A stretch of DNA of 32,602 bases from a virus (Duplodnaviria > Heunggongvirae > Uroviricota > Caudoviricetes). Made by a program: the position numbers and the translations under genes. The notes below the pieces were generated by a model. That model saw only the letters and a program-made list of their open reading frames with translations. It did no database searches and was not told the DNA's origin. Where the stretch lies: IMG/VR virus record IMGVR_UViG_2698536533_000006, one strand, 5' to 3'. This document shows, in pieces, positions 1,299 to 21,331 of the stretch (position 1 is its first letter; each line of letters begins with the position of its first letter).

Positions 1299-1457
1299 TT
1301 TCTTTTCTTCCTATCAATTTGAAATTATTNNNNNNNNNNNNNNNNNNNNNNNNNNNNNNNNNNNNNNNNNNNNNNNNNNNNNNNNNNNNNNNNNNNNNNN
1401 NNNNNNNNNNNNNNNNNNNNNNNNNNNNNNNNNNNNNNNNNNNNNNNNNNNNNNNNN

Positions 1458-3683: not shown

Positions 3684-3988
3684 AATAAAAAAATAACCCG
3701 AGGGGTGACTCAGGTTATTTGAGGTTTCAGTCTCNNNNNNNNNNNNNNNNNNNNNNNNNNNNNNNNNNNNNNNNNNNNNNNNNNNNNNNNNNNNNNNNNN
3801 NNNNNNNNNNNNNNNNNNNNNNNNNNNNNNNNNNNNNNNNNNNNNNNNNNNNNNNNNNNNNNNNNNNNNNNNNNNNNNNNNNNNNNNNNNNNNNNNNNNN
3901 NNNNNNNNNNNNNNNNNNNNNNNNNNNNNNNNNNNNNNNNNNNNNNNNNNNNNNNNNNNNNNNNNNNNNNNNNNNNNNNNNNNNNNNN

Positions 3989-6733: not shown

Positions 6734-6914
6734 ATGATTGATGCAAAAGTGCTTGAAGGGGTTAAAAACTGGCTGTGTATTTATGGCCGCCTGACCTGCG
6801 GTGTACTGGCTGAAAAAATGAATATGCCGCCATCCTCCATGGTTTATTTTCTGCGTGATGCGGTTGATGCAGGCGTGCTGACGGAATGTAACGGTTTTTA
6901 TGATATTCCGCGTC
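6734..6914 (+). CDS. Hypothetical protein, N-terminal part (runs into N run 6915-7209)
   Basis: ORF beginning MIDAKVLEGVKNWL... with RBS GGTGGGGAAA; the C-terminus is not visible. Confidence 0.4.
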
Positions 6915-7238
6915 NNNNNNNNNNNNNNNNNNNNNNNNNNNNNNNNNNNNNNNNNNNNNNNNNNNNNNNNNNNNNNNNNNNNNNNNNNNNNNNNNNNNNN
7001 NNNNNNNNNNNNNNNNNNNNNNNNNNNNNNNNNNNNNNNNNNNNNNNNNNNNNNNNNNNNNNNNNNNNNNNNNNNNNNNNNNNNNNNNNNNNNNNNNNNN
7101 NNNNNNNNNNNNNNNNNNNNNNNNNNNNNNNNNNNNNNNNNNNNNNNNNNNNNNNNNNNNNNNNNNNNNNNNNNNNNNNNNNNNNNNNNNNNNNNNNNNN
7201 NNNNNNNNNCTGCCGGGATATCTGCGGAGGTGGCGTAA

Positions 7239-7753
7239 TGTTCTTTAAAACATCAAACCCTTCCGCGCTGGCTGCGTGGCAAAAATACCAGCAGGACTGC
7301 CAGAAAGTTAAGGATGAGGCAAAACGCCTTGAGGCCGTGCTGAATGTTGCGTGCCGGTCGGTATTTGTATCCGGTATCAGTGGATTTTACTTTAAGGGAC
7401 TGCGTTTTACGGAGGACAAATATCCTTTTCATCGCGACTTATGGCGAAAACCGACTGCGTCGAATGGCTGGAGCTGCACACCGCGCACATCACGTATCCC
7501 TAAAACCCTGCGTGTTGCCTCTGATGAACTGAACAGTCTGTGGCGTGAATATTCGCCCGTCACGTATGCCAGAACCGATGCGCTGTTGTTCTGGTTGGGT
7601 ATTGATTTCTCGGCAATCCTGTTTGGCCCTGTGAAGTGGTTCTGCGTTGACGATGTGATTTACCTTCAGTGCGGCGTAAAACCCGCAAAACAGAAAATGA
7701 CCGAAATACTGTCTGATGAGTTTTATGCTGCTGAAAAGCGAGTCAGGGGGTGA
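7239..7753 (+). CDS. Hypothetical early protein (171 aa)
   Basis: ATG at 7239 preceded by GGAGGTGG; an upstream frame ends with TAA at 7236-7238 (TAATG coupling). Confidence 0.5.
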
Positions 7754-7756
7754 TGC

Positions 7757-8308
7757 ATGATGAAATTACAACCCATGGGACTAAAAGGTCGCGCCCCCGC
7801 TCATGTCCGTCCGTGGACACCTGAAGAAGATGCGCTGCTGATTGCGCTTTATTCATCCACCCCGGTTAAGGATATTGCTGCCAGAATAAAAAGAACTGTC
7901 TGGGCTGTATATAACCGGACTGGTGTATTGCGCAGTTCATACCCGGAGTTACTGAAATATAAACACCCAAGATTTACACCTGATGAAGATAAGTTTATTC
8001 GAAAAAATGCCAGAACAATGACCTGCCAGCAAATGGGAGAATATCTCGGACGTAATAAAGATTCTGTCAGATGTCGGGCAGGAATGATTGGTGCTGGATT
8101 AACAAAGTGCGGAGAGTTACGCCCCGGCACGCGCATATCTGATGATGATGTACGTCTTATACGTGAGCTGCGTGATTCCGATTACCCACGCCGTCTGTCA
8201 TTCCGGGAAATTGGCGAAAAGTTTGGAATATCTGAACATTCTGCTCACGCAGTTTATTACCGTCGCCGGACTGCCGAGGACGCTGTATTACGGGAGTTAA
8301 CGCCATGA
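7757..8308 (+). CDS. Hypothetical DNA-binding protein with three internal HTH-like repeats
   Basis: 183 aa with three similar segments: WTPEEDALLIALY..., FTPDEDKFIRKNA..., ISDDDVRLIRELR...; lower GC than the phage average. Confidence 0.5.
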   Translation: MMKLQPMGLKGRAPAHVRPWTPEEDALLIALYSSTPVKDIAARIKRTVWAVYNRTGVLRSSYPELLKYKHPRFTPDEDKFIRKNARTMTCQQMGEYLGRNKDSVRCRAGMIGAGLTKCGELRPGTRISDDDVRLIRELRDSDYPRRLSFREIGEKFGISEHSAHAVYYRRRTAEDAVLRELTP

Positions 8309-8637
8309 TAACGACCTTATTTGTTGAATCAGATGAACCTCTTGTGTGTGCCGCCGGAATGCCGCTCTGTGGCGGAACGCTGACCGGCGTTTATTTCGGG
8401 GATTTGCGCGGTTATCCCTGGCATTCACTGGATGACGCATTTCCGCCTGATATGGAGGCTGTCGTGCTGATTGTTCAGTATGGTGACCAACAGGAACTGC
8501 GCATCGGCCATATGGGGTATGAAGGCTTTTTTATTGATGAAGAAACCGGAGCCTGCCTTGAAGATGAGGACGGACAGGTGACGCACTGGTGCCATCTTTC
8601 GGCCTTGCCGGAATTACAGGGGATACATAATGGATGA
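8305..8637 (+). CDS. Hypothetical phage protein, DUF551-like C-terminus
   Basis: 110 aa; C-terminal VTHWCHLSALPE resembles the DUF551 signature as I recall it. Confidence 0.5.
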   Translation: MITTLFVESDEPLVCAAGMPLCGGTLTGVYFGDLRGYPWHSLDDAFPPDMEAVVLIVQYGDQQELRIGHMGYEGFFIDEETGACLEDEDGQVTHWCHLSALPELQGIHNG

Positions 8638-8773
8638 GCAAATTGTTGAATGTCCCACCTGTGGAAATGAGGACCCGGAGTATCTGAAAGAGTGCCCACA
8701 TTGTGGTGAGATAAAATGTAACCACTGCGATATGGGCGACGACACTGCATGTATAAATTGTGAGGATGAATAA
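8630..8773 (+). CDS. Zinc-ribbon micro-protein (47 aa, four CxxC motifs); absent from the ORF track
   Basis: My translation: MDEQIVECPTCGNEDPEYLKECPHCGEIKCNHCDMGDDTACINCEDE; CAGGGG about 7 nt upstream of the ATG; stop TAA at 8771-8773. Confidence 0.45.
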   Translation: MDEQIVECPTCGNEDPEYLKECPHCGEIKCNHCDMGDDTACINCEDE

Positions 8774-8774
8774 T

Positions 8775-9062
8775 ATGGAAAAAGAAATCAAATTTGCGCC
8801 TAAATCTATCGACGAAGAACTGGCTAAAATCGGCATGCTTGAACGTATGCGGGACATTATCGAATATGCGATAAAAGAAAATCTTGCAGCCAGAGAAGCC
8901 CTTTTGATAATGGAGCGGGAGATTAACCTGATTAAGGATGCTGTATCTCTGGATAATAAAATAGCCCGCGAGGAATACGTTCGCCGTAGGCTCGGTGTTG
9001 ATGGTTCAGCAATTCTTACATCTGAACATTATGCAAAAATTTTTAATCTTTTTCAGCGGTAA
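8775..9062 (+). CDS. Hypothetical protein (96 aa) in a low-GC segment
   Basis: ATG at 8775 two nt after the zinc-ribbon stop; protein MEKEIKFAPKSIDEELAKIG...; local GC is visibly lower than the flanking phage genes. Confidence 0.5.
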   Translation: MEKEIKFAPKSIDEELAKIGMLERMRDIIEYAIKENLAAREALLIMEREINLIKDAVSLDNKIAREEYVRRRLGVDGSAILTSEHYAKIFNLFQR

Positions 9063-9282
9063 TCCCCATACAGGCCCGGAGATTGTCGAAATGCCAGTCG
9101 GTATTAATATATGAGCCATCCTGGATATCTTCTGCATTTTCCGGGGTAGAGTTTTTTTGAGCGAGATTGATAATATGTATTGCCTCCTCACGGGAAATCA
9201 GCCCCTTATCGAACAGGGTTACCATAAGATTTCCAGCCATTGTGAATGCGGCAACATCAAGTGCATTTTTTATATCTGACAT
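9043..9282 (-). CDS. Hypothetical protein (79 aa), convergent with the early operon
   Basis: Minus-strand ORF with RBS AAGGAAAAA 5 nt upstream of its ATG; 3' end overlaps the 8775..9062 gene by 20 nt; low GC. Confidence 0.45.
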   Translation of the reverse strand: MSDIKNALDVAAFTMAGNLMVTLFDKGLISREEAIHIINLAQKNSTPENAEDIQDGSYINTDWHFDNLRACMGITAEKD

Positions 9283-9310
9283 AGATTTTTCCTTTTATGT
9301 TAATTGACAT

Positions 9311-9338
9311 GGCGGTGCGGTAACACCGCCCATTTTTT
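9311..9338 (+). terminator. Rho-independent terminator-like hairpin upstream of the GemA-like gene
   Basis: GGCGGTG (9311-9317), loop CGGTAA, CACCGCC (9324-9330), then CATTTTTTAT. Confidence 0.45.
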
Positions 9339-9352
9339 ATGGAGCCACGATA

Positions 9353-9865
9353 ATGAATCGCGCTTCCCTGATTACCTTAATACATGTCGCAAAACGCGAT
9401 CTACAGCTTGACCATGATACCTATACATCCGCGCTGCTGGCAGCCACCGGCAAATCCAGTTGCCGTGATATGTCACCCGGTGAGTTATCCCGCGTGCTGG
9501 ATGTTTTCAAAAAACGCGGTTTTAAAGTGCGTCAGAAGCCGGTTAACCGGGCCTTAAAACCGGGTACGGTGACCGCCAAAATTCGCGCCATCTGGAAAGT
9601 GATGCACCGGCAGGGATTTATCTCTGATGGCGGGGAAACGGCCCTTAACCGCTGGGTGAAATCGCAGACGGCCGCGCAGAACGACGGCGAAGGTGTGGCT
9701 AACTGGCAGTGGCTGGAGCAACAACCCGCGCTGGCCTCTGATGTGCTGGAGCGTCTCAAACGCTGGCACCGCCGCAAAATGCTGGCAGCCCTGGATATGT
9801 CGGAACGTGCAGTGATGAGTTATGAGCGTGTTTGCAGGCTGTATGAAAAATCATTCCCCCGTTAA
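9353..9865 (+). CDS. gemA: GemA-like protein (Mu gp16 family)
   Basis: 170 aa; position immediately upstream of the Mor-like gene as in Mu; N-terminus (LITLIHVAKRDLQLDHDTYTSALLAATGKSS) fits my recollection of the gp16 family. Confidence 0.6.
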   Translation: MNRASLITLIHVAKRDLQLDHDTYTSALLAATGKSSCRDMSPGELSRVLDVFKKRGFKVRQKPVNRALKPGTVTAKIRAIWKVMHRQGFISDGGETALNRWVKSQTAAQNDGEGVANWQWLEQQPALASDVLERLKRWHRRKMLAALDMSERAVMSYERVCRLYEKSFPR

Positions 9866-9935
9866 CCCCAAATCCCGCCACAGCGCGGGATTTTTATTTT
9901 AAACTTGCCCTGTGTAATGATGACCGGAGGCGGGT

Positions 9936-10358
9936 ATGGCTGAAACACAGATGAGCATGTTTGGTGACAGCGAACAGCTGCACGCGCTGATTGACCGTCT
10001 GGATGATATTCCTGATGATGAGCTGAAAAAGAACTGGCCCGGCACGCTGCGGGACCTGGTTGATGTGATCAGTGCTGAACTGCACCGTCAGGGGATTGAA
10101 CCTGCTCAGGCGGGAATGCTTGCCCGTAAGGTTGCAGCCGCACAGGCCGGGTACATGGGCGGGCGTGGTTATTATCTCCCGGTCGGTGAATCCCTTTTCA
10201 CCGAACTGCGCAATAATGAAATTTTTTCCCGCTGGAGCCAGGGCGAAAAAATTGAAACCCTGCGCCGCCACTACCAGATGTCAGAGACGCAGATTTACTC
10301 CGTTATCCGCAACCAGCGTCGCCTGCATCAGGAACGCACGCAGCCACGGCTTTTCTGA
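9936..10358 (+). CDS. Mor/C-family transcriptional activator
   Basis: 140 aa; strong RBS GGAGG; acidic N-terminus and C-terminal HTH-like region (IETLRRHYQMSETQIYSVIRNQRRL) resembling Mu Mor and C. Confidence 0.75.
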   Translation: MAETQMSMFGDSEQLHALIDRLDDIPDDELKKNWPGTLRDLVDVISAELHRQGIEPAQAGMLARKVAAAQAGYMGGRGYYLPVGESLFTELRNNEIFSRWSQGEKIETLRRHYQMSETQIYSVIRNQRRLHQERTQPRLF

Positions 10359-16504: not shown

Positions 16505-17832
16505 TTTAGGTTATGCCGCCACGCTTCCCTCAAAAGAGACGGTGGCATACTTCCGCGCCAAAGGGGCGCATATCAGCTGGAACTGGTTCGAAACAGACGC
16601 GGATGTTCATGCCCGCTCATTCACGGCAGCAAAAACGGCACGGCTGGATGTGGTAACCACATTACAGGCCGAAGTGCAGCGGGCCATTGATGAGGGGATT
16701 TCACAGAAAGAATTTATCCGCACACTGACGCCACGCCTGCAAAAGCTGGGATGGTGGGGAAAGCAGATTGTGGTGGACAGCGACGGTAACGCGGAAGAAG
16801 TGCAGCAGGGCAGTCCCCGTCGTCTGGCGCTGATTTACAACGTGAACACCCGTGTGGCTTACAATGCCGGGCGTTACACGCAGATGATGAACAACACGGA
16901 CACGCATCCGTTCTGGCAGTATGTGGCGGTCATGGACAGCCGTACCCGCCNNNNNNNNNNNNNNNNNNNNNNNNNNNNNNNNNNNNNNNNNNNNNNNNNN
17001 NNNNNNNNNNNNNNNNNNNNNNNNNNNNNNNNNNNNNNNNNNNNNNNNNNNNNNNNNNNNNNNNNNNNNNNNNNNNNNNNNNNNNNNNNNNNNNNNNNNN
17101 NNNNNNNNNNNNNNNNNNNNNNNNNNNNNNNNNNNNNNNNNNNNNNNNNNNNNNNNNNNNNNNNNNNNNNNNNNNNNNNNNNNNNNNNNNNNNNNNNNNN
17201 NNNNNGGCGCCAGAACCATGACACCGGATGTGGGCTGGTCATATAACCCCGGCTCGGCAGCGTTCGGCACAGACCAGGCGCTGATCCGCAAACTGATCGA
17301 GGTGAAAAGCCCGGCGTTACGGGAAATGGTGGTTCAGGAGATGAACAACAGCCCGGAGCGGCAGCTGGCGTTCCGCATCTGGGCAAAAAACATCATGCAG
17401 ACCCGGCGAGGTGGTAACGATATCCGCACGCTGGGCTTTATGACTGAAAGCATTGCGCAGGCAGTGGAAAGCCGGACGGGAACGCCACCGGCCCGCCTGC
17501 TGGCGATGAGCGGTAAAAATGTGCTCCATGCGGACAGTGTGAAACATCAGAATGACGGCATCGCTCTGACGCCGGAGGACTTCGGGCGCTTACCGGCAAT
17601 GCTGGCAAGGCCAAAAGCGGTACTGTGGGACAAACGGCACAACAATCTGATGTATATCGTGGAAAATCAGGATGGCAGTGTGCAGATTGCCGTTAATGCA
17701 CCGTACAGTCTGAAACGTCAGCCCGACAAACTGGATGTGATTGTGAATGCTTACCGGGTTATCAATATGGATAAGCTGAAATCGGATATCCGGGGCGGAA
17801 TGCTTGAGGTGCTGGAAGGACAAATTGATTAA
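16488..17832 (+). CDS. Head morphogenesis protein (Mu F / gp30-like), interrupted by N run 16951-17205
   Basis: Open frames on both sides of the gap with combined size near Mu gp30. Frame continuity across the gap cannot be verified. Confidence 0.6.
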
Positions 17833-17916
17833 CGGTCAGTGGCGGGGGTCGAACCCGCATACATGATCCACCCGGAGGCAGGCACCGACTTTACCAGTTA
17901 AGCGTACACTGACCGC
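17833..17916 (-). other. tRNA-like structured element (9-bp closing stem plus T-arm-like hairpin); not a canonical tRNA
   Basis: CGGTCAGTG (17833-17841) pairs with CACTGACCG (17908-17916); inner hairpin GCGGG-GGTCGAA-CCCGC reads GCGGGTTCGACCCCCGC on the minus strand. Confidence 0.3.
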
Positions 17917-21058: not shown

Positions 21059-21331
21059 NNNNNNNNNNNNNNNNNNNNNNNNNNNNNNNNNNNNNNNNNN
21101 NNNNNNNNNNNNNNNNNNNNNNNNNNNNNNNNNNNNNNNNNNNNNNNNNNNNNNNNNNNNNNNNNNNNNNNNNNNNNNNNNNNNNNNNNNNNNNNNNNNN
21201 NNNNNNNNNNNNNNNNNNNNNNNNNNNNNNNNNNNNNNNNNNNNNNNNNNNNNNNNNNNNNNNNNNNNNNNNNNNNNNNNNNNNNNNNNNNNNNNNNNNN
21301 NNNNNNNNNNNNNNNNNNNNNNNNNNNNNNN

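Follow-up and report, generated by a model that had tools for sequence, protein, structure and literature searches.

A gp14–gp15-type gene pair and a conserved hairpin upstream of gemA in a Mu-like prophage of Escherichia coli

The convergent genes and their homologues

The window, that is, the whole stretch of 32,602 nucleotides (nt) analysed here (virus record IMGVR_UViG_2698536533_000006), is a Mu-like (transposable) prophage of Escherichia coli. Its genes follow the order repressor (leftward), ner-like gene, transposase A, B, kil region, gam, small early genes, gemA, mor, lysozyme, head and tail genes, and the part from 8300 to 9900 is 100% identical to prophages of several complete E. coli genomes, e.g. 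that of strain HH35 (NZ_CP136993.2). We consider the segment at 8775–9352, in which two small convergent genes, denoted here orfP and orfM, and a hairpin precede gemA.

The orfP gene (8775..9062, plus strand) encodes a protein of 95 amino acids (aa) predicted to be all-helical. Its earliest possible start is a GTG at 8760; the ATG at 8775 is the start assigned by the Prokaryotic Genome Annotation Pipeline (PGAP) in the identical HH35 prophage, and it is aligned with the start of gp14 of phage Mu. The orfM gene (9043..9282, minus strand; WP_001280088.1 in PGAP) encodes an acidic 79-aa protein with four predicted helices. The repressor and orfM are the only opposite-strand genes in the PGAP annotation of the HH35 prophage. 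The 3' ends of orfP and orfM overlap by 20 nt (9043–9062, both strands). The Shine–Dalgarno sequence of orfM, AAGGA (9290..9294, minus strand), is situated 7 nt 5' of the ATG, and a GGA/GAG motif is present at this site in 11/11 family members examined. The right-hand neighbour is gemA (9353..9865, plus strand; gp16 family; PF06252 match at 1.8e-28), divergent from orfM across a 70-nt spacer; the mor gene of the window matches PF08765.

The segment is AT-rich. The GC content of 8775–9352 is 0.413, compared to 0.549 in the window, which places it in the 1st percentile of 578-bp intervals, and equally low values are seen elsewhere in the window only in the repressor/left-end region. At third codon positions the GC content of the two genes is 0.35 and 0.41, versus 0.59 in gemA. 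These figures were computed with five N-masked runs of the window (1330–1457, 3735–3988, 6915–7209, 16951–17205, 21059–21331) excluded. The runs lower naive GC profiles and create artificial long open reading frames (ORFs), one example being 6734..7753, which contains a run of X.

Hence the layout described in the initial annotation, made from the sequence of this window, is upheld: the plus-strand gene at 8775..9062 and the minus-strand gene at 9043..9282 do converge and overlap by 20 nt, the latter is the sole leftward gene besides the repressor and has its own ribosome-binding site with a motif kept across the family, and the plus-strand hairpin and T-run before gemA are present and conserved with compensatory changes. 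The comparison of GC content with the flanks, named there beforehand as a test, was run, and the flanks differ.

The relationship with Mu was found by a translated search of phage genomes. The orfP product matches phrog_6075 (5.4e-44) over residues 1–95, and Mu gp14, formerly E15, matches the same family at 2e-54. Compared directly by BLASTP, orfP and Mu gp14 are 49% identical (E 3e-29), and the identity to gp14 of phage D108 is 56%. Immediately upstream is an ORF of 47 aa with four Cys pairs of the CxxC type (8630..8773, plus strand), left unannotated by PGAP. This zinc-ribbon ORF is a homologue of Mu gp13 (E14), with 88% identity over 41 aa (E 1e-25) and a match to phrog_5584 at 3e-26; its matches to zinc-ribbon Pfam families are weak and below the cut-off. 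In Mu, gp13 and gp14 stand at the identical place, as the last genes before gemA. By full-length homology and by its position after gp13 and before the gemA region, orfP can be assigned to the Mu gp14/E15 family. The zinc-ribbon ORF occurs also without gp14 and gp15 in other E. coli prophages, the matches there covering query positions 28–157 only.

The orfM product matches phrog_32893 at 1e-45. In the RefSeq record of Mu (NC_000929), gp15 (Mup15, NP_050619) is encoded on the minus strand (7896..8162), shares 62 nt with the end of gp14 and is divergent from gemA. The arrangement in SfMu is the same, the leftward gene being SfMu gp16, and D108 has a leftward ORF of 119 aa at the gp15 position (L008, 1354–1713), unannotated in the D108 RefSeq record; its counterpart is annotated by PGAP in a D108-like E. 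coli prophage. A word-index homologue search yielded close relatives only. We used a profile built solely from relatives of orfM that had been taken from an exhaustive search (nine family representatives). Among 1243 six-frame ORFs this profile picked out the ORF of D108 (E 2e-10) and, with E 2–3e-5, Mu gp15 and SfMu gp16, the next match having E 5. Moreover, Mu gp15, which belongs to phrog_8747, matches phrog_32893 at 5.9e-4, the D108 ORF (phrog_38610) also matches phrog_32893, and an intermediate member of the family, L026, matches phrog_32893, phrog_38610 and phrog_8747. By these matches orfM is a member of the gp15 family, its tie to Mu gp15 itself being at the level of profiles and synteny. 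Across different prophages the family shows 31–49% identity, and residues D9, F13, N18, L23, G27 and H64 of the leftward protein are invariant, H64 lying inside the motif WH(F/L)DNL.

Both orfP and orfM are genuine genes, since they have PHROG matches and are subject to purifying selection. The ratio of non-synonymous to synonymous polymorphism (pN/pS), computed against alleles with 89–98% nucleotide identity, is 0.18–0.32 for orfM, 0.19–0.38 for orfP, 0.27–0.31 for the zinc-ribbon ORF and 0.12–0.31 for the neighbouring genes, whereas the opposite-strand frame across orfM has a ratio of about 1.5 and is interrupted by stop codons. One might suppose instead that orfM is not a gene, gp14 and gemA being separated by a regulatory spacer or by a sequence that encodes a plus-strand peptide. 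Indeed, the GenBank record of Mu (AF083977; L006, 1461–1628) has a plus-strand ORF of 55 aa, Mu_54, where the RefSeq record (L017, 497–763) has minus-strand gp15; in addition, several relatives carry frameshifts in orfM, and no promoter was found for it. However, apart from the contrast in pN/pS, the conservation of the family with its invariant residues and ribosome-binding site speaks for a protein-coding gene. Mu_54 has no PHROG match and no counterpart in the window, where no plus-strand ORF longer than 46 aa exists between the orfP stop and gemA. We consider this explanation highly improbable, and the family profiles, PHROG matches and synteny support gp15 rather than Mu_54. This comparative support for the leftward gp15 as a real gene matters for the annotation of D108 and of Mu in GenBank.

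The frameshifts fall in the C-terminal half of orfM. One site where they arise is a T7 run (9152..9158; A7 in orfM, within Gln-Lys-Asn codons), at which variants P0007 and P0008 are shifted; P0005, P0009 and P0010 are shifted nearby, and an alternative open frame, 9006..9191, results. The clusters of frameshifted forms have one or two members each, versus 33 and 32 for the intact forms. Disruption of the minus-strand ORF in relatives, to which the initial annotation had pointed as evidence that would count against it, is thus seen in a few variants, but the intact gene dominates and is under purifying selection.

Linkage and exchange of the block

Genes of the gp14 and gp15 families occur together, in the convergent orientation, in 15 of 15 distinct Mu-like contexts, the E-value of the gp14 partner being 4e-18 or better. 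The contexts include those of seven diverse family representatives (31–49% identity), Mu, SfMu, D108 and two loci found via the GemA alignment. The 3' overlap is kept in all 13 tabulated contexts, although lengths between 4 and 98 nt occur, and the distance from the 5' end of the leftward gene to the gemA start is 68–74 nt in ten of the 13. There are two exceptions to the gemA neighbourhood: L029 has a DUF2786 gene at this place, and in L028 the neighbour has no GemA Pfam match.

The order gp13–gp14–gp15–hairpin–gemA is observed in Mu, SfMu, D108 and more distant Mu-like prophages. We conclude that the segment is very probably this prophage's version of the last block of the Mu early region, formed by gp13, gp14 (orfP), the gp15-family orfM and the hairpin, and followed by gemA–mor. 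What appeared to be a foreign cassette would then be a local allele of a gene block already annotated in phage Mu. As Mu, SfMu and D108 carry the pair at this very place, it is old in the lineage and not newly acquired by this prophage.

At the same time, the block is variable among E. coli prophages. The breakpoints of blastn alignments delineate an exchangeable segment, 8621..9333 (no strand assigned), with the left breakpoint at 8620 and the right one at 9334 (L002) or 9380 (L003–L005). Among 233 E. coli records matching 8300–9900, only 13 cover at least 80% of this segment, and a more sensitive search with the block alone found it in 14 of 51 records. The alternative cargo consists of one, two or four unrelated rightward genes, the last of which overlaps the gemA start, with no hairpin (the L003–L005 type). 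In the L002 variant, two rightward genes are followed by a reverse DUF2513 gene, again convergent and overlapping, and a hairpin with the stem GGCGGC/GCCGCC precedes gemA. As related E. coli prophages hold other cargo here, the block is accessory and exchangeable. Within the block, mosaic alleles are observed: L009 is 97.6% identical in the rightward gene and 88.8% in the leftward gene. By sequence comparison, gp14, gp15 and the hairpin form an accessory unit that is co-inherited and, in sister prophages, swapped for other cargo.

Reverse ORFs of other kinds are also seen 5' of gemA. In a rough ORF-based survey, such ORFs, of 80–137 aa and unrelated to gp15, were seen immediately before gemA in some distant loci, namely L030 (Edwardsiella, 1029–1442), L055 and L057 (Enterovibrio, Vibrio); L030 lacks a hairpin.

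The GC content of the block is 40–46% (50% in L025), which is 8–16 points under that of gemA in enterobacterial phages, Mu included, and equals that of the surroundings in the Photobacterium prophage and L029. Low GC is therefore a property of the block itself and not evidence that something happened recently in this prophage.

These data bear on the initial proposal of a moron, in which the pair would be foreign, horizontally acquired and subject to antisense control, and would help the phage or its lysogen against other phages or host defences (by superinfection exclusion, defence or anti-defence). The low GC content in every host phage, matched by the surroundings only in the low-GC Photobacterium and L029 phages, agrees with this, as do the variable slot with alternative cargo, another reverse gene included, and the rarity of the block, since among 69 species-representative gemA loci both genes are found in only two and neither in 67. 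Small acidic helical proteins are, moreover, typical of phage inhibitors of host proteins. On the other hand, Mu, SfMu and D108 have the pair at this position as well, neither PADLOC nor Pfam nor NCBIfam gave a match, no promoter of its own was found, and the orfM strand lacks a terminator. We regard the foreign moron as rather unlikely; it concerns function and origin, and conflicts only partly with the identification of the segment as the Mu-type block.

Overall, the interpretation in the initial annotation is partly supported. A two-gene cassette does exist, being a linked unit that is compositionally distinct whatever the host phage, and it is variable among the flank-sharing prophages. 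Its recent acquisition is contradicted by the occurrence in Mu, SfMu, D108 and distant Mu-like prophages. As for the term moron, presence/absence and deviant GC fit, but the promoter and terminator of its own do not appear.

The hairpin and transcription of the block

The hairpin with its T-run (9311..9339, plus strand) is located directly 5' of the gemA ribosome-binding site. The hairpin proper, GGCGGTG-CGGTAA-CACCGCC (9311–9330), has a 7-bp G+C-rich stem, in which six pairs are G–C, and a 6-nt loop, and is followed by CATTTTTTA; the consensus scan identifies it on the plus strand only. The predicted free energy is -13.2 kcal/mol, and the tail, CAUUUUUU, contains six U.

Single-sequence statistics are unremarkable: there are three terminator-like sites in 8200–10000 versus 1.9 ± 1.3 in shuffled sequences, hence no enrichment by count, and the z-score of the 58-nt fold at the hairpin is -1.8. 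Therefore the reality of the hairpin rests on its conservation. In the alignment of 12 loci it is found at the same place in all, and 84 of 84 pair cells are standard pairs, compared to 30–79% of cells in slid controls. Two pairs are changed on both sides (five cells), and none of 500 shuffles reaches the covariation score. Across the loci, the free energy ranges from -13 to -17 kcal/mol, with 4–7 U in the next 8 nt, except for Mu, where the tail is CCCUUUCC. The layout of the spacer is always the same: a G+C-rich hairpin, a pyrimidine-/T-rich tract and the gemA Shine–Dalgarno sequence. The G–T pairs of L026 and L002 would be A–C mismatches in a leftward RNA, and hence the hairpin fits a rightward (plus-strand) RNA. 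No Rfam family matches it. In stem, loop and tail it has the appearance of a Rho-independent (intrinsic) terminator.

We suggest the following model. The rightward early transcript would provide for translation of gp14; after the gp14 stop, it would continue for about 290 nt untranslated and antisense to the whole of orfM, and then reach the hairpin and U-tract. Such an element may work as an insulator or a partial intrinsic terminator, so that the early unit would end there and gemA–mor be set apart. Three observations agree with this reading: among the surveyed variants, the hairpin is present only where the preceding gene is reverse-oriented; the Mu record has a 'semi-early' promoter annotated for the gem operon in the gp15–gemA spacer; and the gem operon is constitutively expressed in lysogens, according to the account of Paolozzi & Ghelardini 1992 given in PMC3820752. 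A terminator or boundary role of the hairpin seems to us evenly poised. Further, convergent rightward transcription across orfM would oppose its expression. Since the two would collide, orfM would be expected mainly in the prophage state, with the early promoter repressed; we put this forward tentatively, with more doubt than confidence. The antisense potential suggested in the initial annotation thus stands: given the overlap with no intervening terminator, some interplay is unavoidable if both strands are transcribed.

Alternatively, the hairpin may have a role other than termination, either as a 5' stem-loop that stabilises the gemA–mor mRNA made from the semi-early promoter, or as a palindrome to which a protein binds within a divergent promoter region. 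The promoter in the Mu record spans exactly the gp15–gemA spacer, the tails in Mu and D108 are poor U-tracts, and the stem GGCGGTG/CACCGCC is identical in eight of the 12 loci, as would be expected of a sequence-specific site. However, the four loci with other stems keep the pairing, the wobble pairs are allowed in the plus-strand RNA only, the pyrimidine-/T-rich tract is always 3' of the stem, and in the window the sequence 5' of the stem shows no promoter hexamers. A role other than termination therefore seems unlikely to us, though it retains a definite share of the probability.

Several points weigh against the favoured account, in which the Mu-type block ends in a partial terminator. In Mu, termination may be weak, since the tail CCCUUUCC after the stem is a poor U-tract. 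The mor gene is needed for the lytic programme, and a strong terminator before gemA–mor would require read-through or bypass. A sigma-70-like promoter for the leftward gene, sought within 220 nt upstream, is absent in ten of 12 loci, the remaining two having weak matches at differing positions, and the consensus scan found no sigma-70-like promoter for gemA in the window either. The promoter and terminator scans were consensus-based, and weak or activator-dependent promoters could escape them. The pairwise BLASTP comparison of orfM with Mu gp15 is non-significant (E 0.38), and a Foldseek search of orfM against viral models gave nothing significant, the long-form Mu gp15 ORF (Q38493) ranking fourth with E 1.8 and a TM score of 0.59. 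Finally, termination, promoter use and the prophage-state expression of orfM are what we infer from sequence. Despite the null BLASTP result, orfM is placed in the gp15 family because of the independent profile matches and the PHROG cross-matches. Taken as a whole, with the identity of the block and the mechanism together, this is the explanation we hold, with moderate confidence. It offers a testable idea of how gemA–mor may be separated from early transcription, with the gp14/gp15/hairpin unit placed exactly where the early operon gives way to the gem operon.

In the same scans, no minus-strand terminator was found in 8200–10000. A perfect TTGACA at 9304–9309 was considered as a promoter element and dropped, as it has no -10 element at a workable spacing and is not conserved.

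A bolder version would make gp14, gp15 and the hairpin a self-contained, horizontally mobile 'state-switch' unit in transposable phages. Production of the leftward acidic protein would be confined to the prophage and silenced by collision with early transcription, its rightward partner would be made in the lytic state only, and the hairpin would gate the supply of gemA–mor. The two proteins might then share a target, of the host or the phage, on which they act in opposite states of the life cycle, e.g. with an exclusion or lysogen-protecting function that the lytic partner turns off. This seems to us quite improbable; if true, it would give a role to the long-ignored gp15 of Mu.

A second terminator-like hairpin with a T-run (9870..9903, plus strand; AAATCCCGC-CACAGC-GCGGGATTT; -13.0 kcal/mol) is located between gemA and mor, and hence gemA would be bracketed by two terminators. 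In Mu, unlike the window, gemA and mor overlap. In E. coli STEC1587 (L003, 2650–3400), an insert of 690 bp, carrying a reverse gene of 140 aa and a gene of 78 aa, is situated between two copies of the gemA–mor hairpin, so that the gemA–mor interval appears to be a second cargo slot. Both slots, the one 5' of gemA and the gemA–mor interval, may be mined for accessory functions in E. coli prophages of the Mu type.

The hairpin/spacer region is also a site of insertion. Immediately beyond the leftward gene, on its 5' side, IS1 is present in L013 (E. coli 2018-166, 2188–2884) and also in strain 2012EL-2448. In L013, the prophage is deleted from the IS1 site to the DNA circularization gene.

Candidate functions and known systems

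Both proteins are small, acidic and all-helical, with isoelectric points (pI) of 5.9 for orfP and 4.5 for orfM. The AlphaFold2 model of orfM has four helices (mean predicted local distance difference test score, pLDDT, 80), and the model of orfP (pLDDT 87) has one 35-residue helix and three short ones. Scans with Pfam, NCBIfam and PADLOC gave no function-giving match for either protein; in particular, PADLOC-DB 2.0 at E ≤ 0.1 yielded nothing for orfP, orfM, the zinc-ribbon ORF or the alternative reverse cargos. Fold matches of both proteins are generic helical ones, and the literature search revealed no paper on the function of gp14 or gp15. The suggestion in the initial annotation of a toxin/antitoxin, immunity or anti-defence function hence finds no counterpart in these searches. 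A protein partner, of the host or the phage, is a more likely target of orfP and orfM than DNA. Profile matches to sequences from PDB, to Hsp70 lid helices for the gp15 family (E 0.03–0.1) and to a kinesin coiled coil for gp14 (E 0.001), were rejected as composition or coiled-coil noise.

A toxin–antitoxin pair could be of type I, with a small toxin and a convergent antisense transcript, or of type II, with two proteins. In its favour, the two genes are strictly co-inherited, as convergent overlapping genes they would give complementary transcripts, and orfM has a hydrophobic N-terminal helix. However, the hydrophobic stretch is about 15 residues by the Kyte–Doolittle estimate, too short for a membrane span, and AlphaFold2 packs this helix into a helical bundle. 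Both partners are conserved proteins of 67–121 aa and not a peptide with a small RNA; thus instead of the membrane peptide and non-coding antisense RNA of type I we see two conserved proteins, with orfM modelled as a soluble bundle. Type II systems are co-directional operons. This pair is convergent, no toxin or antitoxin family in Pfam or PADLOC matches it, and both proteins are acidic, neither having the DNA-binding domain expected of an antitoxin. A toxin–antitoxin role is very unlikely.

Two further features of the window concern its left end and its structural genes. At 1–520 (and at L099, 32239–32602), the left end of the prophage abuts a truncated gene with a MASE1 domain, in agreement with insertion into a host gene by Mu-type transposition. 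The PGAP annotation of the identical HH35 prophage includes a 'tRNA-OTHER' at about 17821–17900 of the window (minus strand), between the genes for virion morphogenesis and minor head proteins; ARAGORN found no tRNA anywhere in the window.

The slot may be compared with the P2/P4 hotspots, which are variable prophage slots holding defence genes. The fixed position between conserved genes and the alternative, unrelated small cargos in sister prophages are similar, whereas no tested cargo here matches a known defence protein model. Lambdoid morons are additional genes that lie among conserved ones and bring a promoter and a terminator of their own; they often deviate in GC content and are expressed in the prophage. 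Our block resembles them in the deviant GC, in presence/absence among collinear relatives and in its orientation against the surrounding operon. It differs in having two genes that are old in the Mu lineage and a hairpin located on the 5' side of the reverse gene and on the other strand, and it fails the moron layout, since no promoter and terminator of its own were detected.

Convergent or antisense arrangements, with promoters and interference mapped experimentally, are represented by the face-to-face promoters pR and pL of coliphage 186 and by oop versus cII of phage lambda. In common with these, there are opposed units whose transcripts would overlap, and a strong lytic promoter would suppress the opposing gene. 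The difference is that our block is described from its sequence, and its opposing gene is not a known regulator.

The closest counterpart is gp13–gp14–gp15 of Mu itself, with which the semi-essential early region of that phage ends. The genes have the same order and orientations, the 3' overlap and the hairpin are present, the gp15–gemA spacer is about 70 nt, and gemA and mor follow rightward. There are also differences. Mu gp15 belongs to another PHROG and has 88 aa versus 79 aa in orfM, whose C-terminal WH(F/L)DNL is not evident in gp15. The overlap is 62 nt in Mu versus 20 nt here, and the hairpin of our prophage is followed by a far better T-run than that of Mu. Finally, gemA and mor overlap in Mu, whereas in the prophage studied here they are separated by the second putative terminator.

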